A stretch of 64,000 nt of DNA from an uncultured Spirochaetota bacterium (GCA_963745235.1 CAVUXE010000035.1:278752-342751), one strand, 5' to 3'. Shown: positions 29,497 to 64,000, counted from the first letter of the stretch. Notes: generated from the letters alone by a model not told the origin. Translations and numbers: made by a program.

Positions 29497-30491
29497 GTGG
29501 AGTTGACGACGCGCCCGGCGCCCGGTCGGAGAAACATCTTCCGCTCTTTCCTTCGTCGCACGGATGCGAGTGCAATCATCGCGACGGTTGTCCTTTTTGT
29601 CGTGTTTTCCAGCGCAACGGAGAACTTCTTTACCCCGTTCAACCAGTTCAACGTCTGGCGAGCCGCCTCGCAGAACGTGTTCATCGCGCTCGGCCAGGCC
29701 ATGGTGGTCCTCATCGGGGGCATGAACCTTTCCCTCGGGGCAATCGGCGGCCTCACCGTGGTCATCCTGGGTCACTCCATCGAGATCCTTGGTTTTCCCG
29801 TCTGGGTGGCGGTGATCCTTGCGCTCCTGGCCGGCGTAGGCTGCGGGGTTGTCAACGGCTTTTTCATCAGCCGGTTCAAGCTGAACTCTTTCGTCGTCAC
29901 CCTGGCCACGAGCTTCATTTTCCAGGGCCTTGTGAACGGCATCTCCCAGGGCAGGCCGTACTCCAAGATTCCCGCGCAGTTCACCCTGCTGGGGAAGGGG
30001 GACATCCTGGGAATCCCCAACATGGTGTTCCTTATGGCGGCCGCTCTCTTTGTCGTGTTTTTCGCCTTCCGCTACACGGTGATCGGCCGGCGCCTCCTGG
30101 CGGTGGGAGGGAACGTGGAGGCCGCGCGTCTTTCGGGGATCAAGACGGGCGGATGATCATGCTCGCAAACGTCCTGTCCGGGGTCTGCGCTTCCGTTGCG
30201 GCAATCCTGTGGGTCTCCCGCATGGGAACGGCCCAGCCGGCAACCGGTGGGGACTGGCTCATCGTGTCTTTTGCCGTGACGGTGATCGGGGGAACCGCCC
30301 TTTCCGGCGGCACCATCAGCGCTTTGGGCTTCCTGTTCTCCGGGCTGCTCATGGCGCTCATCAGGAACGGCCTGATCATGATCGGTGTGAACGTCTATTT
30401 CGAGGCGACATTCCTCGGGGTCATCATCCTGCTTGCCGTGATGGTGGAGTACTTCCGGCTGGGCGTTTCCAGCCGGGCAAAGAAGCTGTGA
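29497..30491 (+). CDS. Sugar ABC permease (RbsC family); frameshift near 30150
   Basis: GGMNLSLG, AVGGNVEAARLSGI, then VIGGTALSGG in the second frame. Confidence 0.88.
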
Positions 30492-41023: not shown

Positions 41024-44000
41024 ATGCCCCGCCGAAACGACATCCACTCCGTCCTGATCATCGGGACCGGGCCGATCATCATCGGGCAGGCCTGCGAGTT
41101 CGACTACTCGGGAACGCAGGCCTGCAAGGCCCTCCGGGAGGAAGGGCTGCGGGTAGTCCTTGTGAACTCCAATCCGGCCACCATCATGACGGATCCCGAG
41201 ATGGCGGATGCCACCTATATAGAGCCCATCACCGTGCCCTTCCTTTCCAAGATCATCGAGGCGGAGAAGCCCGACGCCATCCTCCCTACCCTGGGAGGAC
41301 AGACCGGCTTGAATATCGCAATCCAGCTCGCGGAAAACGGGACGCTGGAACGTCACGGGGTCCGGATGATCGGCGCGGACAGGGAGGCTATCCGGAAAGC
41401 CGAGGACCGCAAGCTGTTCAAGCAGTCAATGGAGCGCGTGGGCCTGGAGGTGCCGAGGAGCGGCCTGGCTCATTCCCTTGCAGACGCGCGAGAGACGGCA
41501 AAGGAGATCGGCTTCCCCCTGATCATCAGGCCTTCCTTCACACTGGGAGGGACCGGCGGGGCCGTGGTTTGCGACCCCGGAGGCCTTCGATGAGATGGCG
41601 CTCCGCGGGCTGTCTGCAAGCATGATCTCTGAAGTCCTCATTGAGGAGTCCATAGCCGGCTGGAAGGAGTTCGAGCTGGAGGTGATGCGTGACAGCGCGG
41701 ACAACGTTGTCGTGATCTGCTCCATAGAGAACTTCGATCCCATGGGCGTGCACACGGGGGACTCCATAACCGTGGCCCCCGCGCAGACGCTCACGGACAG
41801 GGAGTACCAGAGGATGCGGGACGCCGCAATTGCCTGCATTCGGGAGATCGGCGTGGAGACGGGCGGATCCAACATCCAGTTTGCCGTGCACCCGGAAACG
41901 GGCCGGCTGGTGGTCATTGAGATGAACCCGCGAGTCTCCCGCTCCTCCGCGCTTGCATCAAAAGCAACGGGGTTTCCGATTGCAAAGATCGCCGCCAAGC
42001 TCGCCGTGGGCTACACCCTGGATGAAATCCCCAACGACATCACGAAGAGCACCCCCGCTTCCTTCGAGCCGACAATCGACTACTGCGTGGTGAAGATCCC
42101 GCGCTTCGCGTTCGAGAAGTTCCCGTCCGCTGACCCCACGCTCACCATCCAGATGAAATCAGTGGGGGAGGTGATGGCCATCGGCCGCACGTTCAAGGAG
42201 GCCCTTCAGAAAGGGATCCGGGGGCTGGAGATCCGGCGCGCGGGGCTGGGCGGCGTCAACGGCGTCTCCGACGAGGGCCTGGAGGAAGGGCTGGCGCGGC
42301 CCACCGCGGACCGTCTCTACCAGATCCATGAGGCATTCTGCAGGGGATGGGCCGTGGACAGGGTCCACCGGGCAACCCGCGTGGACCCGTGGTTCCTGCG
42401 CAACATGAAGGAGATCGCGGACTTCGAGCCGACCATCACGGAGAAGAACCTGCGGGACGCGAAGCGCCTCGGGTTCAGCGACCAGCAGATTGCGGCGCGG
42501 CTCGGGAAAGACGAGCATGCCGTTCGAGAGCTTCGCGCCTCCAGCGGGATCCTGCCCGCCTACAAGCTCGTGGACACGTGCGCGGCTGAGTTCGAGGCGC
42601 ACACTCCCTACTATTATTCCACCTACGACGCGGAGGACGAGGCTCGACCGTCCCAGCGGAAAAAGATCATGATCCTCGGCGGCGGGCCGAACAGGATCGG
42701 GCAGGGGATCGAGTTCGACTACTGCTGCGTGCACGCCGCGTTCGCCCTGCGGGAGATCGGCTACGAGACGATCATGGTGAACTCCAATCCGGAGACCGTC
42801 TCCACGGACTATGACACCTCCGACAAGCTTTACTTCGAGCCCCTGACCCGGGAAGACGTGCTGAACATCGTTGACCGGGAAAAGCCGCACGGCGTGATCG
42901 TGCAGCTCGGGGGACAGACCCCGCTCACGCTTGCCGTCGGGCTCGAGCAGGCGGGGGTTCCCATCATCGGGACCAGCCCGGACTCGATTGACCGGGCGGA
43001 GGACAGGAAGAGGTTCTCCGATCTGGTGAGGACCCTGGGTCTCCGCCAGCCGGAGAACGGCAGCGCGGTGGAGGTGGCTGATGCGCTTCGCATCGCGCAT
43101 GGCATCGGGTATCCGGTCCTGGTGCGCCCCAGCTACGTGCTGGGCGGCCGCGCCATGGAGATCGTGTATGATGACTCCAGCCTGGAGCACTACATGCGCC
43201 GGGCCGTCTGGGCGTCCCCCGAGAGGCCTGTCCTGATAGACAGGTTCATCGAGGACGCCATCGAGGTGGACGTGGACATGGTGAGCGACGGCCGCATCTC
43301 GGTGATCGGCGGGATCCTGGAGCACATCGAGGAGGCCGGGGTGCACTCCGGGGATGCCGCCATGGTGCTTCCCCCGCACACCCTGCCGCACTGGATGATA
43401 GAGGAGATACGCAGATACACGCGGGTCCTTGCGAAGGAGCTCCGTGTCGTGGGGCTGATGAACGTCCAGTACGCGGTCAAGGGCAAGGAGCTTTACATCA
43501 TCGAGGTGAACCCGCGCGCCTCGCGGACGGTGCCGTTCGTATCCAAGGCCATCGGGGTTCCCCTTGCCAAGCTTGCGGCCAAGGTGATGGTGGGTATGAG
43601 CCTTTCTGATCTCGGCTTCACGGAGGAGGTCATTCCCGACCACATCTGTGTCAAGGAATCCGTGCTGCCCTTCGCCAAGTTTCCGGGGGTGGACATCATC
43701 CTGGGGCCCGAGATGAAATCCACGGGTGAGGTCATGGGAATCGACACGGATTTCGGCAGGGCGTACTGCAAGAGCCAGCTCGGCGCCATGCAGAACGTCC
43801 CGGTGGGCGGCACGGTGTTCATCAGCGTGAAGGACAAGGACAAGACGCAGCTTGTCGTCTCCGTTGCGCACCAGCTCAAGGTCCTCGGATTCACCATCGT
43901 TTCCACAAGCGGGACCGCAAGGTTTCTGGAGGCAAACGGAATAGAAACGGGGGTGGTCCGCAGGGTGAGTGAAGGCGCGCCGAACCTCCTGGACATGATC

Positions 44001-44219
44001 AACGGCGGAAAGATCCAGCTCATCATCAACTCTCCGTCAGGGAAGGGTCCCCGGCAGGACGAGGTATCCATCCGCGCGCTGGCGAACGCCCGCGGCGTTC
44101 CCGTTGTCACCACCATGCCGGGAGCGGACGCATACGCGCAGGGGATCCGGGCCTTCATCCGGGGAGAGCTGGGCGTCAAGCCAATCCAGCGCTACCATGC
44201 CGGCTCGCTTCTTCGGTGA
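41024..44219 (+). CDS. carB: Carbamoyl-phosphate synthase large subunit; frameshift near 41577
   Basis: [44 protein letters not shown] domain. Confidence 0.95.
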
Positions 44220-49700: not shown

Positions 49701-49842
49701 TTCGAGGATACGTGAAGAAGAGACAACGACTGCGCTTCCCGAGCGGCCACCGGTGTTCATGGGGGAGCGCGAGCACGCACCGCTCGGCCCGTCTCCCGCT
49801 GTCTCAGCTGCCGCGCGAGCCGAGGTAACCTTCCGCCCTTAG
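46771..49842 (+). CDS. dnaE2: Family C DNA polymerase alpha subunit, DnaE2-like (error-prone)
   Basis: PHP SNYSFLRG, GRGSAASS, PPDIDVDF, FCKAHSASY, OB fold; short (1023 aa). Confidence 0.8.
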   Translation: MSSHHIHFRSNYSFLRGCHSPEEICRFARERSLSVVGLTDVNNFHGLILFLLAADRAGLKPVAGVVVEKGGRELFTAYVMSRRGYGRICRVLTEVLTDPDGSFDPVGALCDRGWEGLSILSPHTDVINRLAKRERAGLYVQLTYGSPFSILAGFARERGLQTAAIQETVLLDESDEALYPLLRAMDLNTTLERLPEAERLGGRHRYAPPGALKRFFSAVPEALDNTEAIAREADASGIISPQYVFPAFDGLSEEEAFRLLARLCDDGVRRRYGGVRPDIRDRLDYELSVIREKGFASYFLVVRDIVQQCPRTCGRGSAASSIVSYLLGITHVDPLRYTLFFERFLNRGRKDPPDIDVDFPWDERDKTLKYVFQKYEGRSAMVANHVTFGPRSALREPAKALGLPEEELSVIVRAFRQGRLDDIPPYVREAAARIRGFPRNLGTHCGGVVITPGPISDYTHVQVSPLGYPVIAWEKDATEDAGLVKIDLLGNRSLAVLRDALELVEKNHGERYDWESFDPLSNADTRDLIASGRTLGVFYVESPATRQLLTKMRRGDYENLVIASSIIRPAANQYIRTFVKRLHGAPYQPLHPLIEQTLAETFGVMVYQEDVSRVAIDLAGFPIEEADRLRKILSKKDRDLKLPDVREKFFRGASARGVSGQTVAKVWDMILSFDGYSFCKAHSASYAQVSYRVAYLKRFYPLEFIAAVINNGGGFYGRQTYVDECRRMGFAVLAPDVNASKWEYTVEPSRGGLRVGLGQLKDARRALVEAIVEERERGGPYSGFRDFLLRVPCRFEDIRVLIRSGALDSVSEGFTRPQLFFRWQNIDKEEGLGFLPSAPPLIGDYPDRVKLTDEVGTLGIVISRHPLELFRPRIHGIVSRLGLSPFISSADIPVFRGHKVWTAGILVTGKEVTTKKQEPMIFVSFEDELSIYEAVLFPGSFARFFPLLDEGWAFLVFGRVEEDLGAVSISVEKLLPVSRIREEETTTALPERPPVFMGEREHAPLGPSPAVSAAARAEVTFRP

Positions 49843-50896
49843 AAGCTCCGCGCTGAGGATCCCCCCGCCGGCCGCTCCCCGCACCGTGTTGTGGGAAAGG
49901 CAGACGAAGCGGTAGTCCAGGATCCTGTCTTCCCGCAGCCGGCCGATCGAAATCCCCATGCCCCGGCCGGTGTCGCGGTCCAGCCTGGTCTGGGGTCGGT
50001 TGTCGTCCTCGAAGTACGTCAGGAAAGGCTTTGGCGCGCTGGGCAGGCTGAGCTTCTGCGGCGTGCCCTCGAAGCTCGCCCAAAGCTCCCGTATCTTCTT
50101 CGCGGAGGGCTTGTTCTTGAAGGAAACGAAGACCGCGGCCATGTGGCCGTCCGTCACGGGCACCCGGATACACTGGCTCGAGATGACAGGGTCCCTGGCG
50201 TTGATGATCTGACCGCCCTGGACATTCCCCCATATCTTCAAGGGCTCGATCTCGCTCTTCTCTTCCTCTCCGCGGATGAACGGCATCACGTTGTCTTCCA
50301 TCTCCGGCCAGTCCTTGAACGTCTTGCCCGCCCCGGAGATGGCCTGGTAGGTGCAGACAAAGACTTTCTCGATTCCGAGGTCGCGAAGGGGATGGAGCGC
50401 CGGCACATAGCTTTGAATGGAGCAGTTCGGTTTGACGACGATGAAGCCGCGTTTCGTGCCGAGTCTCTTCTTCTGGGTTTCGATGACCGCGTAGTGGTCC
50501 GGGTTGATCTCCGGAAGGATCATGGGAACGTCCGGGGCCAGCCTGTTGGCGGAATTGCTCGAAACGATGGGAACCTCTGCCCTGGCGTAGCTTTCTTCGA
50601 GCGCCCGGGTCTCGTCCTTGGGCATGTCCACGGCGCAGAACGCAAGGTCAAGCCCTTTGCTCACCTCATCCACCAGCGCCGCATTCTTGACGATGAGCCC
50701 AGCCGCCTGCTCCGGGCAAGGGAGTGAGCATTCGCCATCTGTCTCCCACCGCCTCACGGTAGCACTTGCCCGCGGAGCGCTCGCTGGCCGCCACAGTCAC
50801 CACGTCGAACCACGGATGCTGCGAAAGAAGCGAGATGAAACGTTGGCCAACCATTCCGGTGGCGCCGATGACCCCAACCCTGAGCTTCTCAGGCAT
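49804..50896 (-). CDS. asd: Aspartate-semialdehyde dehydrogenase; frameshift near 50719
   Basis: [42 protein letters not shown]. Confidence 0.95.
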
Positions 50897-51047: not shown

Positions 51048-51121
51048 GGGCGGCTAGCTCAGCTGGTTAGAGCGTCTGGTTTACACCCAGAAGGTCGGGG
51101 GTCCGAATCCCTCGCCGCCCA
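51048..51121 (+). tRNA. tRNA-Val(TAC), CCA not encoded
   Basis: Acceptor GGGCGGC/GCCGCCC+A, D arm GCTC/GAGC, anticodon arm TCTGG-TTTACAC-CCAGA, T arm GGGGG-TCCGAAT-CCCTC. Confidence 0.95.
51080..51121 (+). repeat. attL, 42-bp direct repeat (3' half of tRNA-Val)
   Basis: TTTACACCCAGAAGGTCGGGGGTCCGAATCCCTCGCCGCCCA, identical to 57530-57571. Confidence 0.95.
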
Positions 51122-51213
51122 TTCTTCTATAGCAAAAAGAATTGCTGGCTATTTTTCGACCCGGAAAAGAAACACGTTGACGAAAATCGAAGCTCAATTG
51201 TAAACTGAATTCC

Positions 51214-52395
51214 ATGGGAAGACATGCCGGTGTCTATTCCCTCTTCAAGCGGAGCAAGCGTGACGGCGGCTATTACTACTATCGCCTCCGCGGCGAGGGG
51301 TCCTACAAGAGCACGGGGACTCGTGACTACAACGAAGCCCTGGGCGTCATCGAACAGAAGCTAAAGGCCGTCGAGATCGAGAGAACGGCGCCGGCACGAC
51401 GGTCTCTCAAGGAATACTCGGCGGTTTTTTTTGTCTGGGGCAAGTGCCCGCACTGCCGCAAGCTCATCGAAGAGGGTCGCCAGATCACTAAGCGCCACGC
51501 CTACAATCAGCGCCGCTGGCTGGAGAAGTACATTCTGACCGACGCGATCGCGGACAGGCAGCTCGTGGAGCTCACTCGCGCCGACGTCCTCGATTTCCGC
51601 TCGCGCCTGGCTCGGAAGCTCGGCGCGAAAGTGAACACCGCAAATAAGGTCCTCGCGGTCTTGAAAACGATTCTCAAGGAAGCGCTCTTCCGCGAGGACC
51701 TCGAGCGGGATCCCTCCGCCGGCGTCGGCAACCTGAAAGAGGACCGCAGAGAAGCCGGGATCTTCACGGCGGACGAGCTGCGCGCGCTCTTTCCTTCCGA
51801 GGGCCTCGGGCCGTGGGAGGACCTGCAGGCGAAAACCTGTTTCCTCGTGGCTGCCTCTACGGGGATGCGCCGCGGAGAGATCCTCGCTCTTAGCTGGCAG
51901 CACGTCGACTTTGAGCGCTCGGCTATTCAGATTGCCCAGGCCTGGAAATCTCGGGACGAGCTCGGAGCTCCGAAATGGGGACACACGCGCGTTGTCCCTC
52001 TTCCTTCAGTCGCCGCGGCGGCGCTTATGGAGCTCTGGGACGGGAGGCCTCCGAAGCTCGCAAGCGCCGACTCACTTGTTTTCTGCTACGCGGATATCGA
52101 GCGCGCGTATTGGGGCGAGCGCTTAGGAGAAACCTGGTGGACTAAAAACTTCGCCGCGGCGATGAAGAAGGTGAAGGTCGGGGAGAAGGTCGGCATCGAC
52201 GCGCGAGCTCGGGGGATCAAGCCGCACTCATTCCGACATACCGTGGCCACGCTGCGACGGGATGCCGGCGAGGATCCCGCGAAGATCCGCGCGGCTCTGG
52301 GCTGGACGAACGAGCGCACCCAGGGGAACTACGAGCACTTCGCGCCGGAAATGCTGAAGTCTGAGGCCATAGAAAAGATATGGGGATCCGGATGA
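51214..52395 (+). CDS. int: Tyrosine integrase
   Basis: Arm-binding-like N-terminus (YYYR...STGTRD); catalytic R (TGMRRGE), K (PKW), HSFRH, W (LGW), Y (GNYEH). Confidence 0.95.
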   Translation: MGRHAGVYSLFKRSKRDGGYYYYRLRGEGSYKSTGTRDYNEALGVIEQKLKAVEIERTAPARRSLKEYSAVFFVWGKCPHCRKLIEEGRQITKRHAYNQRRWLEKYILTDAIADRQLVELTRADVLDFRSRLARKLGAKVNTANKVLAVLKTILKEALFREDLERDPSAGVGNLKEDRREAGIFTADELRALFPSEGLGPWEDLQAKTCFLVAASTGMRRGEILALSWQHVDFERSAIQIAQAWKSRDELGAPKWGHTRVVPLPSVAAAALMELWDGRPPKLASADSLVFCYADIERAYWGERLGETWWTKNFAAAMKKVKVGEKVGIDARARGIKPHSFRHTVATLRRDAGEDPAKIRAALGWTNERTQGNYEHFAPEMLKSEAIEKIWGSG

Positions 52396-52486
52396 AATGC
52401 TTGCACGGTCCCCTAAGCTATGATACGTTAGGGATGACACTGTTTGAGACTGTCGGGGGAGATAGTTCCCCTTACTCGCTGATGAG

Positions 52487-52574
52487 GCGGGCTGGCAGCA
52501 ACTCAAAGGGATAGAGATGCGGGGGCATCTGACGCGAGAGCGTTCCCTTTGGTTTGCTGTCGGCCCGTTTTTTT
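52487..52574 (+). ncRNA. Y-shaped structured leader RNA ending in a U tract (attenuator or small RNA)
   Basis: GCGGGCTGGCAGCAA/TTGCTGTCGGCCCGT and CAAAGGGA/TCCCTTTG stems, two apical hairpins, then T7. Confidence 0.6.
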
Positions 52575-52596
52575 GTGCCTCGGGAGGGGGCGATGT

Positions 52597-52818
52597 ATGC
52601 AAGAGCTTCAGAAAAAACTCGACTCGCTTCTCGACTACCGGGGAGCGGCTGAGGTCCTCGCCGTCTCGGTGCCGACTGTGAAGCGGCTCGCTTCCTCGGG
52701 AGAGATCCCCGTCATTCGCGTGGGGCAGCGGGCGACCAGGTTCGAGCCCTCAGCGCTGCGCGAGTTCATCGACAGCCGCCGCGGCGACGCGCAGAAAGCG
52801 CAGCGCACCGGAGCCTGA
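52597..52818 (+). CDS. Excisionase/AlpA-like HTH protein
   Basis: LLDYRGAAEVLAVSVPTVKRLASSGEIPVIRVG..TRF (HTH_17 pattern); SD GGAGG. Confidence 0.85.
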   Translation: MQELQKKLDSLLDYRGAAEVLAVSVPTVKRLASSGEIPVIRVGQRATRFEPSALREFIDSRRGDAQKAQRTGA

Positions 52819-52820
52819 CG

Positions 52821-53510
52821 GTGGAGTACTCCCTTGTGATCGATCAACTCGCTTTGAAGCGCTGGCACGGCAAGATTGACGGGGACGACGCGCTTCTGAT
52901 AGCGTTCATTTCGAAGCTTAACTCCCACAATCCAGAGGTAGCGCGCTACATGGACCGCGACTATTTCCGACTCAACCGCTCCTGGATACTGACAGAGCTT
53001 CCTCTCCTGGGATTCACGGAGTATACGCTCAGTCGCCGCCTGCACCAGCTGCAGAAGCTCGGGATCCTCGACCTCAAGAATCCCCACGGCCAGGGCGGAC
53101 ACCTGCTCTTGCACGGCCGCATGTCAAAGCTCTGGTACCAGGAAGTAGAGAAAGCAAAGAGGGAAGTGGATCTACTTTCCACCGCCACCGAGCAAAAAAG
53201 CCATATGGCGGAAATACCATATGGCGAAACCGCCCATGGGCATCTGGCGCAAATGCCAGTGGCAAAAACGACACATGATCATATTAAGAATGATCATAAA
53301 GAGGAGACCGCAGCCGCCCTCCCTGACGGGGCGGCTTGCGGCCTCCCTGAAGAGAAAGAACCCAGCCTGTTCCCTGAGGATCCCCGCGCCGACGTGCCTA
53401 CCGCAGAGATTCTTGCGGCAGCAGACAGCGAATTTGCGCGGAGCATACTCCGGGAGCGCGCGGAGGAAGAGTCTGATTTCCCTGAGGCGGAAGCGGGGAG
53501 GCCGGCGTGA
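52821..53510 (+). CDS. Putative phage-type replication initiator (N-terminal winged HTH)
   Basis: TLSRRLHQLQKLGIL wHTH; internal DNA repeats plus AT-rich tract; position after xis. Confidence 0.6.
   Translation: MEYSLVIDQLALKRWHGKIDGDDALLIAFISKLNSHNPEVARYMDRDYFRLNRSWILTELPLLGFTEYTLSRRLHQLQKLGILDLKNPHGQGGHLLLHGRMSKLWYQEVEKAKREVDLLSTATEQKSHMAEIPYGETAHGHLAQMPVAKTTHDHIKNDHKEETAAALPDGAACGLPEEKEPSLFPEDPRADVPTAEILAAADSEFARSILRERAEEESDFPEAEAGRPA
53190..53300. repeat. Iteron-like repeats and AT-rich tract (putative origin)
   Basis: TGGCGGAAATACCA, TGGCGAAACCGCCCA, TGGCGCAAATGCCA, TGGCAAAAACGACACA, then ATGATCATATTAAGAATGATCATAAA. Confidence 0.6.
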
Positions 53511-53830
53511 CTCCGACAACTCCTACGCGATGGCAGGCCTTTCTGATTCTGCTACTCAACTCGGTGTTCTGGGGGCTGGGCTGGGCCTACGGGCTGCCGC
53601 GGCGGATCTGCGCCACCGTCGGCTCCTACCTCCCCACTGAGGCCCCCGCGGCGATCCTCTTCTCCAGGGCGCCTGCCGTTGCTGCGGGAAATACGGGAAC
53701 CACGACGCCATGGGCTCCGATTCAGACCACCGTCCGGGCCGATCCGATACTTGCGGCTCAGCTGGGCGCTGCGGGCGTGGCAGTCAACCAGACACCGGCA
53801 GATCTGGGCATTGGGCAGCCGTTAAACTGA
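53507..53830 (+). CDS. Hypothetical protein, one N-terminal TM
   Basis: GTGA overlap with the rep stop; WQAFLILLLNSVFWGLGWAYG. Confidence 0.55.
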   Translation: MTPTTPTRWQAFLILLLNSVFWGLGWAYGLPRRICATVGSYLPTEAPAAILFSRAPAVAAGNTGTTTPWAPIQTTVRADPILAAQLGAAGVAVNQTPADLGIGQPLN

Positions 53831-53868
53831 TGGACCTCAACGATCTGGTATGTAACGGGAGGGGGAGA

Positions 53869-53943
53869 ATGAAAGCACTCGTGATGAAGCTGTGGGCGCG
53901 GCTGTTCGGCAGGCTCGAAGTGGACTTCAAGCAGGCGGCGTAA
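53869..53943 (+). CDS. 24-aa amphipathic peptide
   Basis: Purine-rich SD; MKALVMKLWARLFGRLEVDFKQAA*; abuts the next ATG. Confidence 0.4.
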   Translation: MKALVMKLWARLFGRLEVDFKQAA

Positions 53944-53944
53944 C

Positions 53945-54136
53945 ATGGAGCGCTTTCTGAAACGGAACAGCCGCGGCGTCACGTGCATTTTCTGCAACCG
54001 CCGCGCGGAACGCTTCGAGTTCAAGATCAAGGGCACGCTGCAAGCCTGGGTCTGCGACTCATGCGCCGAGAAGCATGCAGCGCAGTGCGAACGAATCGAA
54101 GAGCCGTCGAACATTGCGGCGGCGAAGGAAGGGTGA
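53945..54136 (+). CDS. ClpX-type C4 zinc-finger miniprotein
   Basis: CIFC-x19-CDSC with IKG and AWVC. Confidence 0.6.
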   Translation: MERFLKRNSRGVTCIFCNRRAERFEFKIKGTLQAWVCDSCAEKHAAQCERIEEPSNIAAAKEG

Positions 54137-54138
54137 AT

Positions 54139-54501
54139 ATGGGCACCATCGTTGCAAGGAACGTGTACCATGGCGACACGGCCGTTGAGGTTCCGATCCC
54201 TGACGGGGATCCCTCGACCTGGCCCGCGCGCTGGTGGGAAGGCCCTGGCCGCTCGACCAGGCAGGACAGCGCTACAGTGAGACTGTCCCTTGTGGGGAAT
54301 GCCGCGGCGGACCAGATCCCCGACCTTTCGCACTTCGACGCGACGGTCGAGTACGACTCCGAGGTGGTTCGCGAGCGGATGATCAAGCGGATGAATGCCG
54401 ACTCGCGCAGCTACCAGGGCACGACCCGGGCGAACGTCAAGGAGACGGCCAAAGAAGGGATCTCCGCGGCTATGGGCTCCGGCTACTACAGGGAGGGCTG
54501 A
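54139..54501 (+). CDS. Hypothetical protein (120 aa), C-terminus GSGYYREG
   Basis: SD-like GGAAGGG; tightly packed in the operon. Confidence 0.7.
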   Translation: MGTIVARNVYHGDTAVEVPIPDGDPSTWPARWWEGPGRSTRQDSATVRLSLVGNAAADQIPDLSHFDATVEYDSEVVRERMIKRMNADSRSYQGTTRANVKETAKEGISAAMGSGYYREG

Positions 54502-54503
54502 GC

Positions 54504-55235
54504 ATGCCGGCGGGACGTTTGATCGACTGGGCCGCCGAACGGCGCGCTGACGAAGCCGATAAGGTATTCGAGCGCATCGAGGCTTTGCAGCGGCTGCGCG
54601 GGACCACGGACCTGTACCCGGGCAATTTTCTCCGGCCCGGCCGCGAGGCCTACGTCGCCATCATCGACGAACAGCACACGTTCGTCAATGACGGCCATCT
54701 CCACGCCAAGCCCTGGCTTGCGACTTGTCCTCGGCGGCCGTTCGACGGGGGCGGCTTTCGGCACATGAAATGCTTCGAGCCCGAGCGCTGCATGCGGCTT
54801 TTCCAGTACGACGAAGAGGCTGGCAAGGTCGGCGCCGAGCTCTTTGCAGGACGGGTGTTCTACAAGAGCATCGGCCCAGGATCACGGGAAATCATCGACG
54901 AAGCGACGGGCGAGGCACACTACGTCCAAAAAGACGCGGGCTTTGAAATGGCGATCTGCGGGTATGAGGTCATCGCCGTCGCCGCGGGAGCGATAAAGCA
55001 GCGCCCAAAGGAACATCCTCAACTGCCGCGCGACCTGGTAGGCGTTGCTCTCTGGCGCACCCTTTTCGCATACATTGATTTCTCGATCACGCCGGACGAT
55101 GAGGCCCAGCGCGAAAGAGACTGCTCCACGAGCGAATGGAGCGCCTACAAGGCGGCGAAGTCCCTGAAGCTGGGCACCGCCACAACCGTGGATCGGAGAG
55201 GAATGGACCCGTTATATCGCACCGGGGGCGCATGA
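54504..55235 (+). CDS. Hypothetical protein (243 aa)
   Basis: SD GGAGG before ATG 54504; 2-nt gap from the previous gene. Confidence 0.75.
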   Translation: MPAGRLIDWAAERRADEADKVFERIEALQRLRGTTDLYPGNFLRPGREAYVAIIDEQHTFVNDGHLHAKPWLATCPRRPFDGGGFRHMKCFEPERCMRLFQYDEEAGKVGAELFAGRVFYKSIGPGSREIIDEATGEAHYVQKDAGFEMAICGYEVIAVAAGAIKQRPKEHPQLPRDLVGVALWRTLFAYIDFSITPDDEAQRERDCSTSEWSAYKAAKSLKLGTATTVDRRGMDPLYRTGGA

Positions 55236-55236
55236 T

Positions 55237-55674
55237 ATGGCTGGAATCGGGCTGCCATTCTTCAGGGGGGCGGACCCTCGCCGGCCCTCGCGTAAAACTG
55301 CCACGGTGGCAAAAATAGCGAGCGCGGAGACAGGGGAATCGCCCGGCAACTCCGACGCGACGGAAGAGGTCCTGCCTGAAGTGGTTTTCGACCCGGAGCC
55401 CGAGGAAGGCGGATCCACCGTACATGCGGGTAAGCAACAGGCCTGGCCGCGGTCACTGTCCCGCAGGGACCGGGGTCTGATCGCACGGGCCGCGGCCGAG
55501 ACGGAGAAGCTCCAGGAGCTCGCGGGGATCCCGCCGGACCTGGCCCAGCTCCAGCGCTCCGATCCGCGGATCGAGCTCGACCAGGACGGCAACATCAAGC
55601 GCCGGCAGCCGAAGCCCGAGAAGTTGAGCGAGGCCGACGCGGCGTTCCTTTTCATGATGAACTACAGGAGGTAG
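55237..55674 (+). CDS. Hypothetical protein (145 aa), acidic/disordered
   Basis: 1-nt gap from the previous stop; genome-like codon use. Confidence 0.65.
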   Translation: MAGIGLPFFRGADPRRPSRKTATVAKIASAETGESPGNSDATEEVLPEVVFDPEPEEGGSTVHAGKQQAWPRSLSRRDRGLIARAAAETEKLQELAGIPPDLAQLQRSDPRIELDQDGNIKRRQPKPEKLSEADAAFLFMMNYRR

Positions 55675-55677
55675 TCA

Positions 55678-55923
55678 ATGGCAGACAAGAATGGCAACTT
55701 CGGTTTTCCCCGAGACGGTGTCAGCGCGGACGGCACGCCGGTGACGCGGCAGATCGTCACGACAGGGGGAGGCGGTGCGCGCGTCGTGGATATCCCGCGC
55801 GTGCAGAGCTCGGGACCTGGAGGCGGACCGTCCGGACTGGGGAGCTCGCACGAGGGCGGCCACCCCGCGGGAGTGAACGGCGAGCAGATCCCCGTGAAGG
55901 GCAGCGGGTACTACCCCGAATGA
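55678..55923 (+). CDS. Gly-rich hypothetical protein (81 aa), C-terminus GSGYYPE
   Basis: SD AGGAGGT. Confidence 0.7.
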   Translation: MADKNGNFGFPRDGVSADGTPVTRQIVTTGGGGARVVDIPRVQSSGPGGGPSGLGSSHEGGHPAGVNGEQIPVKGSGYYPE

Positions 55924-56303
55924 AACCCCTGCTCGCAGAGATCAAGCAGCGGCGCACGGAGCCCCTCGAGCAGAGCGCGACGGGCGGAGCGATCGCACGG
56001 CAGCCAGCGACCATTGCGCCGCGGCAGCCTTCGCCGAGCCTGCCGGCGCGGGGTACTCCTCGAGCTCCGATGCCCAACCCGGCCAGCCTGGCAAGGATCC
56101 CGGCTCGCGCAACCTTCACCAACGTGCCCACTGCCGGCGGCCAAGTCTCCACGGTGACGCCCTCGGTGGAGAACGTCACGACCGGAGCGCCTGGCATGCA
56201 GCGCAAGATCGTGCATGATCCGCACCGCGGCGCGCACGTCGAGCTCGTGCCGAGCTTCAGGGCATCGAAGCCGGGAGCGCAGACGGGCGAGCTCCCGGAA
56301 TAG
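55920..56303 (+). CDS. Pro/Arg-rich hypothetical protein (127 aa)
   Basis: ATGA overlap with the previous gene. Confidence 0.65.
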   Translation: MKPLLAEIKQRRTEPLEQSATGGAIARQPATIAPRQPSPSLPARGTPRAPMPNPASLARIPARATFTNVPTAGGQVSTVTPSVENVTTGAPGMQRKIVHDPHRGAHVELVPSFRASKPGAQTGELPE

Positions 56304-56305
56304 TT

Positions 56306-56683
56306 CGGGGCGGGCGCTGCCGCAAGCGAAGCGCTCACCCCGGGGCAGGGTAGTGATTCCCCTGTCCCCGGCCCTCTGCTGGTCCGGGTTCTTCACGGTC
56401 CCCGGCCGGCGCAACACCCGTGAGGGCGGAAGCCCCGCCGTTGGCGGACAAGCGAAAACCCTCGCGGGTCCTTTTGAAACAGGACCGCTCCTGGCCGTTG
56501 CGACGAGCGGCTTCATGGGGCGGATCTGCAGGGAAGCCGGGCCTGGCGTTGCCAGAGCTCCCGGCTTTCCCGTTAAAACAGGCGCATACCGTGCGCGGGG
56601 CCTGAAGGCGGCCGTTGGCCGTCCGGGCCCCTTTCCTTTGCGCGTGGCGGGGGCAAGGCGCGACTTTCGCGGGGCCTGCCGCA
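56306..56683 (+). ncRNA. Candidate large structured non-coding RNA (~380 nt, ~10 stems)
   Basis: Near-contiguous stems with many G-U pairs in + sense; four CGTTG-capped apices; no credible ORF. Confidence 0.6.
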
Positions 56684-56745
56684 TGATTCTACCAGGCCAA
56701 AAGCGCCCCTTGACAGATTTGCTATGAGTGCTGTACATTCATGGC

Positions 56746-56916
56746 ATGACGCTACAGGTTCGACACGTGCCCGATACGGTGCACAAGGCTTTGAAACGGC
56801 AGGCGCTCGAGAGAGATCTCTCCCTGAACGCTCTGGTACTGCAGATCCTGGGGCTAGCGTCGAAGAAGAAGCGGATCCCCCCAGGGGATCGCGCTGTCGG
56901 CATTTCCACGGATTGA
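56746..56916 (+). CDS. Ribbon-helix-helix (Arc/FitA-like) DNA-binding protein
   Basis: MTLQVRHVPDTVHKALKRQALERDLSLNALVLQIL; TTGACA-18-TACATT ends 6 nt before ATG (leaderless). Confidence 0.8.
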   Translation: MTLQVRHVPDTVHKALKRQALERDLSLNALVLQILGLASKKKRIPPGDRAVGISTD

Positions 56917-57043
56917 AAGGAGGGCAGCGGCAGTCCTATTATGGGGCTGCCGTGGATAGGGTAGCTCCCGACACGCCGGTGTCTCTTGCCCGGCTTCCAC
57001 GGCACTTTCAAAGCAAGAGCGCACTTTCAAGAGGAGTGCACCA

Positions 57044-57340
57044 ATGGTCAACAAGAACATAGACGGCAAGCCCGTCGCTCTTCGCTTGCTTTCGAAGATC
57101 ACTGAGGACACCACCCCAGACGGGGACTCGCGCGCGGCGGAAATCAAGAAGGCGAATGATTCGCTCGGCGAGGCGCTCGCGCTCCAGGAACAGATTCAAA
57201 CGCTCGCGACTTTGGCTGATGGGCGGAGCAAAGACTCGACGCTCTTGTATGTGATCGAGAGGCTTTCGAAGGAGCTGAACCGACACCTCAGCACGATCGA
57301 GCGCGCGTTGATGGATCTGGGCCGCATCGACGGGACCTGA
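57044..57340 (+). CDS. Hypothetical helical protein (98 aa)
   Basis: SD GAGGAG; followed by a terminator. Confidence 0.7.
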   Translation: MVNKNIDGKPVALRLLSKITEDTTPDGDSRAAEIKKANDSLGEALALQEQIQTLATLADGRSKDSTLLYVIERLSKELNRHLSTIERALMDLGRIDGT

Positions 57341-57360
57341 GAGTACCGCCGCGGCGCTTG

Positions 57361-57393
57361 AAGAGGCCCTCGAGAGATCGGGGGCTTTTTTTT
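57361..57393 (+). terminator. Rho-independent terminator
   Basis: AAGAGGCCCTCGA-GAGA-TCGGGGGC followed by T8. Confidence 0.8.
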
Positions 57394-57529
57394 GCCCGGC
57401 TCTTCGAGGCTCAATCGAAGCTGATTCGAAGCCTTATTCGGGAATGTGAGCGCATTGAAAATCGTGCGTAACATTGTAGCGGGAAAGACAGGGAGTGGAA
57501 TGGGAGCGCGCGGGAGAATAGGATTTTGC

Positions 57530-57571
57530 TTTACACCCAGAAGGTCGGGGGTCCGAATCCCTCGCCGCCCA
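57530..57571 (+). repeat. attR, duplicated tRNA-Val 3' half
   Basis: 42/42 identity with 51080-51121. Confidence 0.95.
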
Positions 57572-57782: not shown

Positions 57783-58820
57783 CTAGAAGTGAAACGTGTA
57801 CGAGACTTTCACCGAGAGATCGAAGGTTGGGTTCACATTTGTAAGTCCGTCGGTGTTCGAGTCGTCGTAGTTGTGGATCTTGAATACCGCTTCCACATAA
57901 AAAGGTCCCGTAGCATAGATGATTCCGGGATAGAGACTGGATCCTAGCGCTTTGGCGGAACCGGAGTGGCCTCCGTAAAAGGCGGAGCCCGGAGTGCTTC
58001 CATTGGGAACATTCTGGTAGGTGTACAAGGATGCTCTGAAATATGCCTTGAGACCGGGAAGGCCTATGCTTGTGAAGTCAAACGTCAGCTTGGGATACGT
58101 GTACAGACGCAGGTTATAGCCTGCATCGCTGAATGAAGGGGTTGTGCTCCCCTGGTCGGAAAAATAGACGGCTTCCAGCACATCGAGCTGCCAGGGTCCG
58201 TAGATGAAGCTCACTTGCGGATTTACATCGTACAGCCATGCTGGAGAGAGCCCGATTTCAGTGCTCACGGAGAATACCAGTGCCGTGGTTTTGTCGAAAG
58301 AGAGCTTGTATGCGATACTCTCGTAGTTTGTAAAGAGAAAAGTGTTCATCCCGCTCCCAAAGAACGTCCCAAGAGAGATCCCTTTGTAGGCGTAGTCCAT
58401 GAGATATTTGATCTCCGCGTAGGCGGGATCATTCGTCGCGTCAGTGCCGATGAAATACAAAGGAAGGCTGACACGCAGCGTCCAAGGCCCGGAGAGAAAG
58501 TCCACAAAAGGTTCCGCTCGGGCAAAGTTCACAAAGGAAGGGGAAATGGTGCCCATCATGTCTTCCGCGCGCAGGCCAAGCCTCAGCGTCGTGGAATCAT
58601 CTGGCTTCAGTGTGTAATAGCCGTTGATGTAGGGGTCTGGGACCAGATTGAGATTGCTCGTGATTGCCGTAGCGGCGCCCGGCTTTTGCTGCGCAGATGA
58701 GAAAGCGTTGAGTGCCGCGCCGAGAGCGCCGACTTCCAGCGTGATTCCCTCCGCGAAAGCAGCAAACCCAGCTGCGGAAACGAGGAGAATCGTCACAACA
58801 ATAAGACGCAATTGTTTCAT
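57783..58820 (-). CDS. Putative outer-membrane beta-barrel protein
   Basis: Signal peptide ...AAFA; aromatic alternating strands; C-terminal VKVSYTFHF. Confidence 0.7.
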   Translation of the reverse strand: MKQLRLIVVTILLVSAAGFAAFAEGITLEVGALGAALNAFSSAQQKPGAATAITSNLNLVPDPYINGYYTLKPDDSTTLRLGLRAEDMMGTISPSFVNFARAEPFVDFLSGPWTLRVSLPLYFIGTDATNDPAYAEIKYLMDYAYKGISLGTFFGSGMNTFLFTNYESIAYKLSFDKTTALVFSVSTEIGLSPAWLYDVNPQVSFIYGPWQLDVLEAVYFSDQGSTTPSFSDAGYNLRLYTYPKLTFDFTSIGLPGLKAYFRASLYTYQNVPNGSTPGSAFYGGHSGSAKALGSSLYPGIIYATGPFYVEAVFKIHNYDDSNTDGLTNVNPTFDLSVKVSYTFHF

Positions 58821-60633: not shown

Positions 60634-60951
60634 GCACTTCCTCCTCTCCGCTCCTCTTGTTGGCTTGTGGTAAATGACAGGGTTGCAGGTCAACCAGTTC
60701 AGGGTGGCGAAATTCAATTTTCAGCTTACATCACCGGATGGCTCTGTCAAGCCATGGAGCCGATCCTCACACTGGGGGTGGGGAAGAGAGCCGTCGCACC
60801 AGCTTTTTCGCGAGATCGCCTCCCCCGCGCGGAGGGATGGAATTTTTCCCTTACCTTGCTCCTGCACCGGTATTACTTTACGTCTGTGCGCAAGGGGACC
60901 TTGCAAGTCACGTCGCGAGGCTCCAAGGACAGCCCGGCGGCGAGTAAGCAG

Positions 60952-63899
60952 ATGCTCGTCGGCCGTCAATCAGAGCTGACGTTCATATCTCGCCTTCTGG
61001 ATGAAGCAAAGTCTGGAAACGGAACCTTCCTGGGACTCAGCGGCGAGCCGGGGATCGGGAAGACGAGGCTCGCCGAGGCGGGGGCTGCCGTGGCCCAGTC
61101 GAAAGGGTTCATAACTTTCTGGGGACAGTGCCATGACGGGCAGTACATCCCGCCCTACTGGCCCTGGAAAGAACCCCTCAGAGGACTTCTGAAAATGCTT
61201 CCCCGGCCGCGAGGGGAGATCAGGCAAAATGGAATACCGGAAGGACTGGCCAGCATCTTTTTCGAAGCCTTCCGGAACCCCGACTCTCAGCAGGCAATGC
61301 CCATGCCTGTGTCTGACCAGGCCAGGCTCCTGATACTGGAATCCGCAACGGCTCTCATACGCAGGATTTCCGAGCGCAGGCCCCTGCTGTTGATCATGGA
61401 TAACATTCATTGCGCTGACGTTCCGTCGCTCCAGCTGCTCGAAGTCGTGGCGTCGGAAATGCGCGCGCAGAACCTCATGATTATCGGCACGTACCGCGAA
61501 CCCGCGGCGGATTCAAGGGCTGAGTTCCGGCCCGCAATTGGCGCTCTGGCAAGCAAGGCTTTCTTTCACGGCATCTGTCTCTCCGGCTGGGACCAGGCGG
61601 CCATCTCCGAGTACCTGAAGATCCGCGGTATTGCCGCACCGCCGGCAAGAGCTCCTTCGCGCGGTTTTGAACCGAACGGAGGGAAATCCTCTTTTTGTCG
61701 GTGAAGTCACGAACCTGCTGAAGCACGAAGGGTTCCTGGACATCGGAGCTCCTGAGGGCCCAGGTGCCTGGGAGAAATACATCCCCCAGAAGATCCGCCT
61801 GGCAATCCTTGGCCAGTTCCAGAGGCTCTCAACGCCGTGCCAGGATGTCATGTCCCTTGCCGCTCTCGCTGGACGAGAGTTCGAGTCTGCAATTCTTCGC
61901 CAAGCCACAAAGATGACACGAGCGGCCCTCGAGCGGGGTCTTGAGGAGGCAATTGCCCACGGCATAGTCATCGCAGATGCAGAAAAGCCCGGTCTTTACA
62001 AGTTCACGCACGCTCTGGTCCAGGACGTCTTCGTTGAGCAAATAACGGTCCACCGGAGACCAGCGCTTCATCTGGAGATAGGAAGGGTGCTGGAACGGCA
62101 TTACGCCCGTGATCTCGAAACTCACGCGGGAGAGCTGGCTCGTCACTTTGACCGCGCTGGACCGGAAGGCATGAAGCGCGCGGCTCACTACTATAGCCTG
62201 GCGGGCGAGCGCGCCTTGAAGATGCACGGTTTCGAGGATGCCCTTGAGCAGCTCGGTTGCGCTCTCCACCTGTCTGAGGGCACAGGGAGCGCGCAGGACA
62301 TCGCCCGGTTGCTTTTCGGTCTGGCTCAATGCCAGCATGGCGTGGGCAGGTATAAAGAGGCTGTTGAGACTTATACACGGGCTTTCGACCTGTTCGAGCA
62401 GAGCGGAGACAGGGACAACGCGGTCCGTATGCTGGAGCAGCCCCTGATCCTGGCAGAAAAGGGCGCAGACGCAACAGGGCTTCTCGAGAGAGCGATTGCC
62501 CTGGCGGGTCCCGGATCGTTGCGCGCTGAGGCCCTTGGCGGGAAATACGGTCTCGCCGTCTACCACGCTACAGGTGACTATCAGAAAGCCGCCTCGCTGT
62601 TCGACCGTGCGCTGCGCGCCGCAAGGCAGTCCAGGGACCGCCCCCAGGAATTGTCAGCGCTGATGAACCGCGGACGCGTGGAATGCGATGAGCTGCACTT
62701 CGAAGAAGCGCACAGGCTGGAAAAGGAGTCCACCCGGCTTGCGCAGGAATACGAAGACGTCTGGATCGAGCTGGTGTCGCTGGGAAGCGATATTCAATCA
62801 TTGCTGGGCCTCGGACGGTTGGCCGAAGCTGAGAAGCTGACTGATTCTGTCAGGGCCTTGGGAGAGCGCCGTGGCGTGCACATCCGCAAACTGGCTACTG
62901 TAAACTTGGGCTTCCGCTTTGCCGTGCAGCGCCAAAAGGGAGCGCTTGCGGCCGCTCGCGAGATAAACGAGAAGGCGCTCGCTGCTGGACCCGTTCCTTA
63001 CGCCATCTGGAGCCTCGCGGACAGGGCTCTCCTGGAGTTTGAGCAAGGCGATGCGGCCCACGGTGCTCAGTTCCTCCGTAAAGTGGAAGAACAGGCTCAT
63101 ATGGCCGACGCCTACATCGTTTTCCACTGGGAGGGTTGGCTCATCGTTCTGATTTCCCTGATCGCCTGGTTCACTGGCGAAGCCGTACGTTTTGAAGGCG
63201 CAGAAAGCGCCGCACGAGATCTCCTTTCGAGGGGCGGCCTTCGTAAGGGAGACCTTGTGCATCTCCACGCCGGACTTGGGCTTATTACGGTCATACGGGG
63301 GGATGGCGAAGCTGCCGGAAAGCACTACACGGAGCTACTCCCGTTCCGCGGACTGGTCGTCTGCCCGTACCAGGGCTTTGTGGCAGATCATCTCCTGGCT
63401 TTGCTGGCGGGCACGATGGGAGATCACACGCGAGCACGTGACCATTTCAACGCGGCCCTAACTTTCTGCCGAAATCAGGGATTGACGCTCGAGCTGGCAT
63501 ACACATGCTGGGACTATGCGCAGTTTCTTGTCGAGAGCACAGAGAGTCGTGATCCTGCGCTTGCCGCGAGTCTTTGCCATGAGGCGGCTCTGATCGCGAG
63601 GCACTGCGGTCTTCCCCTGGCTCATCGAGAGACTGGCGAGATTACAGAGCCAGCTCCAACGCAAGCCCGTGCGGCCGGCGCATCGAGATTCGTTGAGCGA
63701 AAGAGAAGTGGAAGTTCTGCGGCTGCTCGCGGAAGGGCTGAGCAACGCTCTGATAGGCGAGAGGCTGTTCATCAGCTTGCACACCGTGGCAAACCACGTG
63801 CAAAAAATCCTGGAAAAGACCGGGGCGGTGAATCGAACGGAAGCCGCGATGTATGCCGTTCGTCACAATCTCACCGGGACAGGAACCCCTCCCGAATAG
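60952..63899 (+). CDS. STAND AAA ATPase + TPR + LuxR HTH regulator; frameshifts near 61645 and 63615, start uncertain
   Basis: LVGRQSEL, GEPGIGKTRL, IMDNIHCAD, TEGNPLFV, YKFTHALV, LSEREVEVLRLLAEGLSN..IGERLFISLHTV. Confidence 0.88.
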
Positions 63900-64000
63900 T
63901 GCGCGCGCAAAAAGCGGCGCACGGTCCACGGCACACGAACGCTTGGCCAGCCTGCGGACACGATTCCAGAATCCGTGGTACCCTCGGACGCGCGCGATGT

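Follow-up and report, generated by a model that had tools for sequence, protein, structure and literature searches.

PICMIs, the phage-inducible chromosomal minimalist islands of the Vibrionaceae, are defined, in the description given by PMC10803314, by a DUF3987/DUF5906 primase and by their insertion beside fis, and one of them, PICMI115, consists of six genes (PMC10803314). The DNA analyzed here is a stretch of 64,000 nucleotides (nt) from an uncultured Spirochaetota bacterium (GCA_963745235.1 CAVUXE010000035.1:278752-342751), called the window below, in which positions 51,080 to 57,571 hold a small element bounded by direct repeats. This element has the integrase (PF00589) and the AlpA-type factor (PF12728, where PICMIs have PF05930 or PF12728) that belong to a PICMI. 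The primase is missing: DUF3987/DUF5906 is unmatched at Pfam E <= 0.1 in all open reading frames (ORFs), and neither PHROGs nor NCBIfam yields one. With a little less than even confidence, the locus is read here as an intact, self-excising 6.45-kb integrative element that depends on a helper for its transfer, that is, a hitcher, which is most likely phage-satellite-like. Its excision set is complete (Int, Xis and att), a replication set is possible (orf3 and an internal palindrome array), and nothing recognizable is present for leaving the cell.

The excision set and its insertion site consist of the following features.
51048-51121, + strand: tRNA-Val(TAC), the integration target, still intact after insertion.
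51080-51121, + strand: attL core, 42 nt that form the 3' part of the tRNA, same as 57530-57571.
57530-57571, + strand: attR core, same sequence as the attL core.
51177-51206, + strand: promoter-like site before int (consensus scan 9/12).
51214-52395, + strand: int, tyrosine integrase of 393 amino acids (aa); PF00589, E 2.9e-18; phrog_1, E 2.9e-48.
52597-52818, + strand: xis, AlpA-type HTH_17 excisionase, 73 aa from ATG, with the Shine-Dalgarno (SD) sequence gggaggggg.
57399-57432, + strand: 11-nt tandem repeat, 3.2 copies (Tandem Repeats Finder score 40), containing ATCGAAGCT; the attR core is some 100 nt away.

The sole tRNA in the window is tRNA-Val(TAC), as called by ARAGORN and by Rfam (68.1 bits). 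An earlier sequence-only reading of this DNA had proposed perfect att repeats together with an intact int and an xis-like gene, and all three proposals hold. The att repeats are identical at 42 of 42 nt and lie 6,450 nt apart; when one mismatch is allowed the match grows to 45 nt, the mismatch being a G/C difference at its left edge. The integrase retains its catalytic residues R219, H338-x-x-R341 and Y373, and the nearest phage integrases are no more than 31% identical to it, with four records at E <= 1e-10. The xis product matches PF12728 (HTH_17) at E 5.2e-10, TIGR01764 ("excise") at 1.7e-8 with 34.7 bits against a cut-off of 28.8, and phrog_66 at 4.2e-7; an alternative start, TTG at 52549, would give a protein of 89 aa. 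The locus thus combines the features of tyrosine-recombinase integrative elements, namely PF00589 with the R...HxxR...Y signature and direct repeats in which the 3' end of a tRNA is duplicated, and the element can probably cut itself out.

The int start has no SD sequence and the promoter-like site lies close to the ATG, so that the int mRNA may be leaderless. Promoter-like sites hug the ATG of both int (51177-51214) and a ribbon-helix-helix (RHH) gene described below (56710-56746), and neither start has an SD sequence. There are three exact copies of ATCGAAGCT in the 64-kb window, two of which lie in the att arms (51186-51194 and 57414). These sites and the 11-nt repeat are candidate arm-type Int sites, with the reservation that the motif was picked post hoc.

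The DNA between the att repeats measures 6,408 bp and has a GC content of 62.4%, against 60.9% for the rest of the window; the element is therefore host-adapted, with a GC content near that of its host. The asd gene beside tRNA-Val has its best matches in metagenome-assembled genomes (MAGs) of Spirochaetia at 84%, 80% and 71% identity, and the host, judged by sequence similarity, is an uncultured Spirochaetia lineage. In the sister MAG closest by asd (L001, 2172-4693), tRNA-Val(TAC) adjoins asd as well, and the 3' half of the tRNA is copied again 2.4 kb away in degenerate form (about 88-89% identity to the window att over 43-44 nt), with the same left-boundary G-to-C change as the window attR. 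The two tRNA copies of L001 enclose a cyclase-like gene and a gene with a CxxCH heme motif, without an integrase, and the degenerate copy looks like the relic of an earlier insertion. In another related MAG (L002, 1-47), the contig stops 47 nt into tRNA-Val, within the att core, as expected if a repeat or a variable insertion interrupts assembly. Because of the degenerate att copy in L001 and the contig end in L002, it is suggested that tRNA-Val(TAC) is an insertion site used repeatedly in the host lineage. In the rest of the window the genes are ordinary chromosomal ones, and none belongs to a prophage or to a conjugation system.

Because the genome is GC-rich and yields many long spurious ORFs (138 of at least 30 aa in 11 kb), genes were called from third-position GC content (GC3), the GC content of each codon position per candidate, upstream sequences and junctions between genes. 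Thirteen genes are supported, every one on the + strand, with GC3 of 0.66-0.83. On the minus strand, ORFs reach 275 aa but do not show the usual GC1/GC2/GC3 pattern, which upholds the earlier claim that all genes lie on one strand. The junctions from xis to orf11 range from -4 to +3 nt, and SD-like purine runs precede most starts. Eight coupled orphan ORFs had been claimed; there are indeed eight after orf3, but the tightly coupled run itself comprises nine, orf3 to orf11. Because of the GC3 values, the SD sequences and the coupling of starts to stops, the ORFs of the element look real.

Four profile libraries were used throughout: Pfam, PHROGs, NCBIfam and PADLOC. Beyond int, xis, the RHH gene and a match of orf3 to phrog_11527 (unknown function), none of them gives a significant family match. 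No capsid, terminase, primase, relaxase or Zot protein is matched in these libraries, just as the sequence-only reading had stated, and the P-loop motif [AG]xxxxGK[ST] occurs in no + frame of the element; therefore there is no P-loop terminase, helicase, Zot, FtsK-type or coupling ATPase. The whole element, searched with blastn in distant mode, has no match in 50,697 phage records or in plasmids; nor do orf3, orf7, orf8, orf9 and orf13 in the same phage records by tblastn, or orf8 and orf3 in plasmids. Sequence searches of the PDB with the orf8 and orf3 families, orf13, orf7 and orf9 give nothing better than E 0.2. The cargo thus proves as unrecognizable as had been claimed, receiving no name from the four libraries, PDB sequences, phage and plasmid collections or Foldseek. 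From the absence of machinery for moving between cells we infer helper dependence, and a helper such as a phage is likely to be needed for this reason.

The part of the element that may serve replication is a gene with an internal repeat array.
52821-53510, + strand: orf3, 229 aa, with a conserved winged-helix-like N-terminal domain and an acidic variable tail.
53185-53300, unstranded: AT-rich palindrome array inside orf3, a candidate origin or operator.

Residues 1-86 of orf3 match phrog_11527 at E 1.1e-5. Its two homologues, both metagenomic and of similar length, are 82% and 45% identical to it; the first ~115 residues are near-fully conserved and the acidic tail is variable. One homologue shows weak matches to MarR_2 and HTH_20 at residues 63-88 (E about 0.1). 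The look-alikes of orf3 in the ESM Atlas are viral hypothetical proteins (0.95-0.96), below which come HTH_36 and Phage_rep_O clusters (0.92); this resemblance is a lead, not a test. The array has a GC content of 45.7%, compared with 62.4% for the whole element. Within 120 nt it contains five perfect palindromes of 8 nt, where the window averages 0.54 per 120 nt. Three of them, CCATATGG, CCATATGG and CCCATGGG, are of the type CC(A/C)AT(A/G)GG and are spaced exactly 16 nt apart, and ATGATCAT occurs twice, 15 nt apart. CCATATGG occurs only twice in the 64-kb window, both times within this array. In phage lambda, by annotation, four ori iterons likewise lie inside gene O, and it is for this reason that orf3 is proposed as an initiator that would bind the array inside its own gene. 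The two genes are alike in that each encodes a DNA-binding protein, a putative one in the case of orf3, and carries periodic repeats with dyad symmetry in an AT-rich patch at a domain boundary; however, orf3 has no sequence or profile similarity to gene O and, unlike it, no adjacent P-like helicase loader. The orf3 product is accordingly best called a candidate replication initiator or regulator.

Control of the element may rest on RNA and other non-coding features.
52484-52574, + strand: int-xis hairpin, long (90 nt), with U7 at its end; the xis start follows 22 nt later.
56304-56727, unstranded: 424-nt GC-rich non-coding tract with several hairpins, rich in inverted repeats.
56913-56942, + strand: promoter-like site before the int-alpA RNA (TTGAAA-18-TATTAT, 10/12).
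56949-57018, + strand: int-alpA RNA (Rfam RF02996), full-length match 1-71, between the RHH gene and orf13.
57360-57395, + strand: intrinsic terminator, hairpin with U8 (-34.1 kcal/mol, z -3.5).

The int-xis hairpin has a minimum free energy of -59.1 kcal/mol (z -6.4, with 0 of 200 shuffles as stable), and the whole int-xis spacer folds at z -5.07 against shuffles. It is probably a terminator for int and an attenuator for the xis-orf11 operon; the attenuator reading follows from its end 22 nt before the xis ATG, so that the promoter of the xis operon must lie upstream. Of the two structured tracts in the sequence-only reading, this spacer is therefore strongly supported, whereas the support for 56304-56727 is marginal (z -2.3; one shuffle in 100 folds as stably). 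The latter tract has no coding signal, with no GC3 signal in any frame, and includes a GGGGCC...GGCCCC hairpin followed by UUUCCUUU (56598-56640); it is a candidate cis site (pac/cos, an origin of transfer (oriT) or ori) and operon terminator.

The int-alpA RNA is a third RNA element that had been missed; its 39.5 bits exceed the gathering score of 35.8, with E 1.4e-5 when 8 kb are searched. Elsewhere in the literature consulted, int-alpA is just a listed name or denotes an order of genes. Its transcript would start at about the first base of the Rfam match, as placed by the promoter-like site. In the excised circle, the stretch directly upstream of attP and int holds the int-alpA RNA, orf13 and the terminator; the terminator itself had been predicted correctly. 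A 21-nt box with an GACAYGCCGGTGTC dyad, 18 of 21 positions identical, is shared by the int start (51221-51241) and the int-alpA RNA (56970-56990). It was rejected as evidence, about one such pair being estimated by chance in 7 kb.

The largest orphan of the cargo belongs to a rare protein family.
54504-55235, + strand: orf8, 243 aa, beta-rich.

A phmmer search of 1.84 billion representatives returns nine matches to orf8, namely itself, six true homologues and two chance matches; the last two, large repeat proteins (P0012 and P0014), were dropped as they match through a short repeat. The six homologues, which like those of orf3 are metagenomic, are 216-234 aa long and 28-41% identical to orf8. 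The alignment of the family extends back to the first residues, so that 54504 is fixed as the start of orf8. The alignment has 12 invariant columns, including W71, C75 and P76 ("WLATCP"), F91-x-P93-x-R95 and D230-x-R232. A word-based protein search finds only a fragment of orf8 itself, and a profile search recovers just two of the six known homologues and nothing further. Scans with the orf8 family give nothing below E 0.01 in Pfam and PHROGs, and orf8 has no usable match in the ESM Atlas. An AlphaFold2 model from the 7-sequence alignment reaches pLDDT 68 and pTM 0.65, compared with pLDDT 34.5 for the single-sequence model, and shows about ten strands between an N-terminal helix and helices at the C-terminus. 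The Foldseek comparison of this model that the sequence-only reading had called for finds nothing at E <= 0.001 in the PDB or BFVD; the best matches have E 0.027-0.028 and TM-scores of at most 0.17, and these insignificant matches are beta-sandwich, jelly-roll and tail-tube proteins.

A 147-aa piece of orf8 (54792-55235, P0007) is also recorded as an identical copy on a separate 7,329-nt contig, and two contigs (the longest of 342,751 nt) are on record with the identical orf3 protein. Because of these records, the element may also have been assembled on its own.

The remaining cargo is composed of small proteins and a putative regulator.
53507-53830, + strand: orf4, 107 aa, overlapping orf3 by 4 nt; GC3 0.72, SD ggggagg.
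53830-53943, + strand: orf5, 37 aa, its start overlapping the orf4 stop (TGATG); GC3 0.79.
53945-54136, + strand: orf6, 63 aa, CxxC...CxxC zinc ribbon; GC3 0.78.
54139-54501, + strand: orf7, 120-aa orphan with the C-terminus GSGYYREG; GC3 0.83, SD gaaggaaggg.
55237-55674, + strand: orf9, 145 aa, charged orphan; GC3 0.82.
55678-55923, + strand: orf10, 81 aa, 35% Gly+Pro, with the C-terminus GSGYYPE; GC3 0.78, SD aggagg.
55920-56303, + strand: orf11, 127 aa, Pro-rich, pI 11.4, overlapping orf10 by 4 nt; GC3 0.81.
56710-56739, + strand: promoter-like site before the RHH gene (scan 10/12).
56746-56916, + strand: RHH gene for a FitA/HicB/Arc-type DNA-binding protein, 56 aa from ATG; candidate repressor.
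57044-57340, + strand: orf13, 98-aa acidic orphan; GC3 0.79, SD agaggag.

The orf4 product has one hydrophobic N-terminal segment (KD19, Kyte-Doolittle hydropathy over 19 residues, 1.59 at residue 12) and no significant family match in Pfam, PHROGs or PADLOC; its NCBIfam match to futalosine hydrolase (E 0.0033) is below threshold, with 17.1 bits where the cut-off is 213. The least secure gene is orf5. The match of orf6 to zf-C4_ClpX (E 6.9e-4, 19.9 bits) falls under the cut-off of 27, and orf9 has only a weak sub-threshold PADLOC match to AbiEi (E 0.022, 12.1 bits), with none in Pfam, PHROGs or NCBIfam. No match is found for orf7 in the four libraries and phages, for orf11 in the four libraries, or, at a significant level, for orf13 in the four libraries, the PDB and phages. 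The C-terminus GSGYY(R/P)E is common to orf7 and orf10 (54478-54498 and 55900-55920), which are otherwise unrelated, and may be a shared docking or processing motif.

The RHH module seen in the sequence-only reading is confirmed by a match to PF22513 (FitA-like) at 9.8e-7, with 29.1 bits against a cut-off of 27, and by HicB at 1.8e-4. An alternative start, GTG at 56728, gives 62 aa, and given the position of the promoter-like site the mRNA would be leaderless. No partner toxin for the RHH protein is found in Pfam or PADLOC.

These parts can be assembled into a working scheme. In the resting state, int would be expressed alone, possibly from a leaderless transcript, and the xis-orf11 operon would be held off by the leader terminator, the RHH repressor or both. 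A signal, possibly derived from the helper, would relieve this block, after which Xis and Int would excise the circle. The winged-helix protein encoded by orf3 would then bind the palindrome array in its own gene and recruit host replication proteins. The eight small novel proteins, of which one has a membrane segment, one is a zinc ribbon, one is the beta-rich 243-aa protein and several are predicted to be disordered, may, together with the 424-nt tract, divert the packaging or transfer machinery of the helper. The module made up of the RHH gene, the int-alpA RNA and orf13, which would lie just upstream of attP and int in the circle, may act as the switch.

The intactness of att, int and xis counts for a helper-dependent hitcher, and so do the homologues of orf8 and orf3 of similar length found elsewhere; the label of satellite is plausible. 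Several results weigh against it. Neither a pac or cos site nor a small terminase is identified in the element, and the 64-kb window contains no helper phage genes. The right flank of the window has no tblastx match in L001, and the empty attB was not rebuilt because this flank is not syntenic with the sister MAG. The search of related genomes suggested in the sequence-only reading is likewise negative: a search of 185,579 species-representative genomes for orf8 relatives gives 312 pattern matches and 0 confirmed, and tblastn of the 13 element proteins against 80 related loci and the rest of the window finds only one distant integrase. An affinity of orf3 to lambda O was rejected (hhalign probability 0.14%), and orf3 has no match to any Pfam Rep family or PDB chain, so that of the rep-like gene claimed earlier only the lead from the Atlas stands and the label itself is unconfirmed. 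P4 has no int-alpA RNA match at E <= 0.1, and for this reason the RNA alone is no satellite marker.

Moreover, frameshifts in host genes of the same assembly mean that single ORF boundaries could be wrong. The host asd gene (49804-50896, - strand) is in two frames with a shift near 50714-50721, whereas it is a single ORF in the sister MAG, and represents either a pseudogene or an assembly indel; carB, for the large chain of carbamoyl-phosphate synthase (41024-44219, + strand), is split into ORFs of 189 aa and 874 aa. Such broken host genes suggest indel errors in the assembly. Pieces of branched-chain transporter permeases at 4331-6527 and 29497-30153 also appear broken. However, at each junction within the element a start codon stands where it is needed, and an indel error would not create one.

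The lack of a relaxase, a coupling protein and an NTPase alike (Pfam, PHROGs, NCBIfam and the motif scan of the + frames) would also be expected of a relaxase-less integrative mobilizable element of the iOriT type, in which the 424-nt tract would be an oriT that a conjugative element's relaxase recognizes in trans and the small proteins would have accessory or leading-region functions. Islands with only an oriT are reported to be frequent (bioRxiv 10.64898/2026.01.13.699239), and the tract at 56304-56727 is long, non-coding and rich in inverted repeats. However, its fold barely beats shuffles (z -2.3), the int-alpA RNA, the AlpA-type Xis and the viral look-alikes of orf3 lean towards phages, and no conjugation gene is present in the 64-kb window, so that this explanation is unlikely. 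A resident island or integrated plasmid-like element that no longer transfers or never did, and that maybe still excises, is a decidedly unlikely alternative; its cargo would serve the host or its own maintenance, with the RHH gene and orf13 as a possible addiction-type module. The cargo without assigned function and a GC content equal to that of the host fit such an island, L001 shows that att-flanked DNA at tRNA-Val can persist without an integrase, and proteins of the FitA/HicB-type RHH families are, by their family names, often antitoxins. The perfect 42-nt att, the intact int and xis, the coupled ORFs and the strong GC3 argue against decay. The pairing of the RHH gene with orf13 as toxin and antitoxin was rejected, since 127 nt that include an RNA gene separate the two, which is not how toxin-antitoxin pairs are usually arranged, and orf13 matches no toxin family in Pfam or PADLOC.

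The size of the element falls in the range of the smallest bacterial viruses, and it could therefore be a minimal temperate non-tailed virus whose genome enters its particles without an NTPase. In such a virus orf8 would form the capsid or coat, orf4 and orf5 would belong to a membrane, and the disordered Gly/Pro-rich proteins would lie inside the particle or serve as scaffolds. The model of orf8 is mostly beta strands, its insignificant Foldseek matches are all of the kinds named above, orf4 has one membrane segment, and an identical piece of orf8 is on record from the separate 7,329-nt contig. Against these points stand a best TM-score of 0.17 without any match at E <= 0.001, the lack of an HUH Rep, a Zot-type ATPase or a known capsid family, and the lack of any match in the 50,697 phage records for the whole element or its five orphan proteins queried, and a virus of this kind is quite improbable. 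A helper-dependent, probably phage-satellite-like hitcher remains the preferred reading.

Directly to the right of attR, an ORF for 345 aa (57783-58820, - strand) has no Pfam match; it resembles a signal peptide at its N-terminus and is aromatic at its C-terminus, and its product is probably an outer-membrane beta-barrel protein. Further on (60667-64000, + strand), an AAA_16 ATPase ORF is followed by an overlapping long TPR/MalT-like ORF; the pair look like a STAND-type regulator and possibly represent one gene split by a frameshift.

If the element is a satellite or a minimal virus, such elements would extend to the Spirochaetia; a literature search found no paper connecting phage satellites with spirochaetes, and another gave no primase-less satellite family among its 10 titles. 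A true satellite would be a hitcher that dispenses with the primase held to be near-universal in satellites, and about nine new protein families would gain a testable role. The orphan int-alpA RNA of Rfam would gain a compact context, namely a promoter, the RNA and a downstream gene beside attP. If the element is just a resident island, it is another small tRNA island to which no function is assigned. A more far-reaching proposal, which we regard as doubtful, is that it is the founding member of a new Spirochaetia family of mobile elements that are minimal in size (6.4 kb) and have no primase, either satellites or self-sufficient tiny viruses, in which about nine new protein families would carry the functions of helper exploitation or particle formation, control would combine a terminator-hairpin leader, an RNA of the int-alpA class and an RHH protein, and the origin would lie inside the initiator gene. 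The most notable features of the locus are the terminator-leader, the int-alpA RNA in a defined context, the palindrome array of orf3 and the orf8 family.

The element differs from the described systems in definable ways. Compared with the islands in the iOriT study, it likewise has att boundaries and an integrase, and genes for a relaxase or a mating pore are absent; that study, in the account it gives of its hosts, covers six nosocomial species, whereas the present host is a spirochaete, and no oriT is identified in the element (bioRxiv 10.64898/2026.01.13.699239). Inoviruses are characterized by a Zot-type assembly ATPase and a rolling-circle Rep; in the + frames of the element there is no P-loop motif, and neither family is matched in Pfam or PHROGs. 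The immunity of P4 is based on termination. Like P4, the element has a tyrosine integrase, an excisionase-type HTH regulator and possibly an RNA- or termination-based control of an early operon; unlike P4, it lacks the alpha primase, sid, psu and delta (Pfam, PHROGs and NCBIfam), and the C4/CI RNA found in P4 has no C4 counterpart in it.

The resemblance to PICIs (phage-inducible chromosomal islands) and PICMIs in size and int-alpA-like layout, noted in the sequence-only reading, is borne out, and the int-alpA RNA adds a link to int/alpA islands. The element is about half the usual size of a PICI. It shares with Gram-negative PICIs, whose layout is int-alpA-pri in the outline given by PMC13612085, the order of int and an alpA-like gene, integration with direct repeats and an Rfam RNA named after int and alpA. 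It differs from PICIs, and from those PICIs that form capsids (cf-PICIs), in lacking both a pri-rep primase-helicase and a module for packaging (terS, rpp/ppi or capsid genes). Like PICMIs, as they are outlined in PMC10803314, it is small, with few genes, int followed by an AlpA/HTH_17-type factor, small unknown genes, large non-coding regions and no capsid-remodelling genes; unlike them, it lies at tRNA-Val beside asd rather than at fis, in Spirochaetia rather than Vibrionaceae, and has no cargo proteins in common with them. The earlier proposal of a new satellite family is upheld in its anatomy and in the lack of recognizable structural and transfer genes, whereas the primase that defines PICIs, PICMIs and P4 is absent. 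Because this primase, the fis site and host range of PICMIs, and the genes of P4 are all absent, the element is not filed in any named satellite family. It works most like the PICMI and PICI satellites, and as a tRNA-targeting int-xis island or hitcher it is of a known kind, with a cargo that is almost entirely new.

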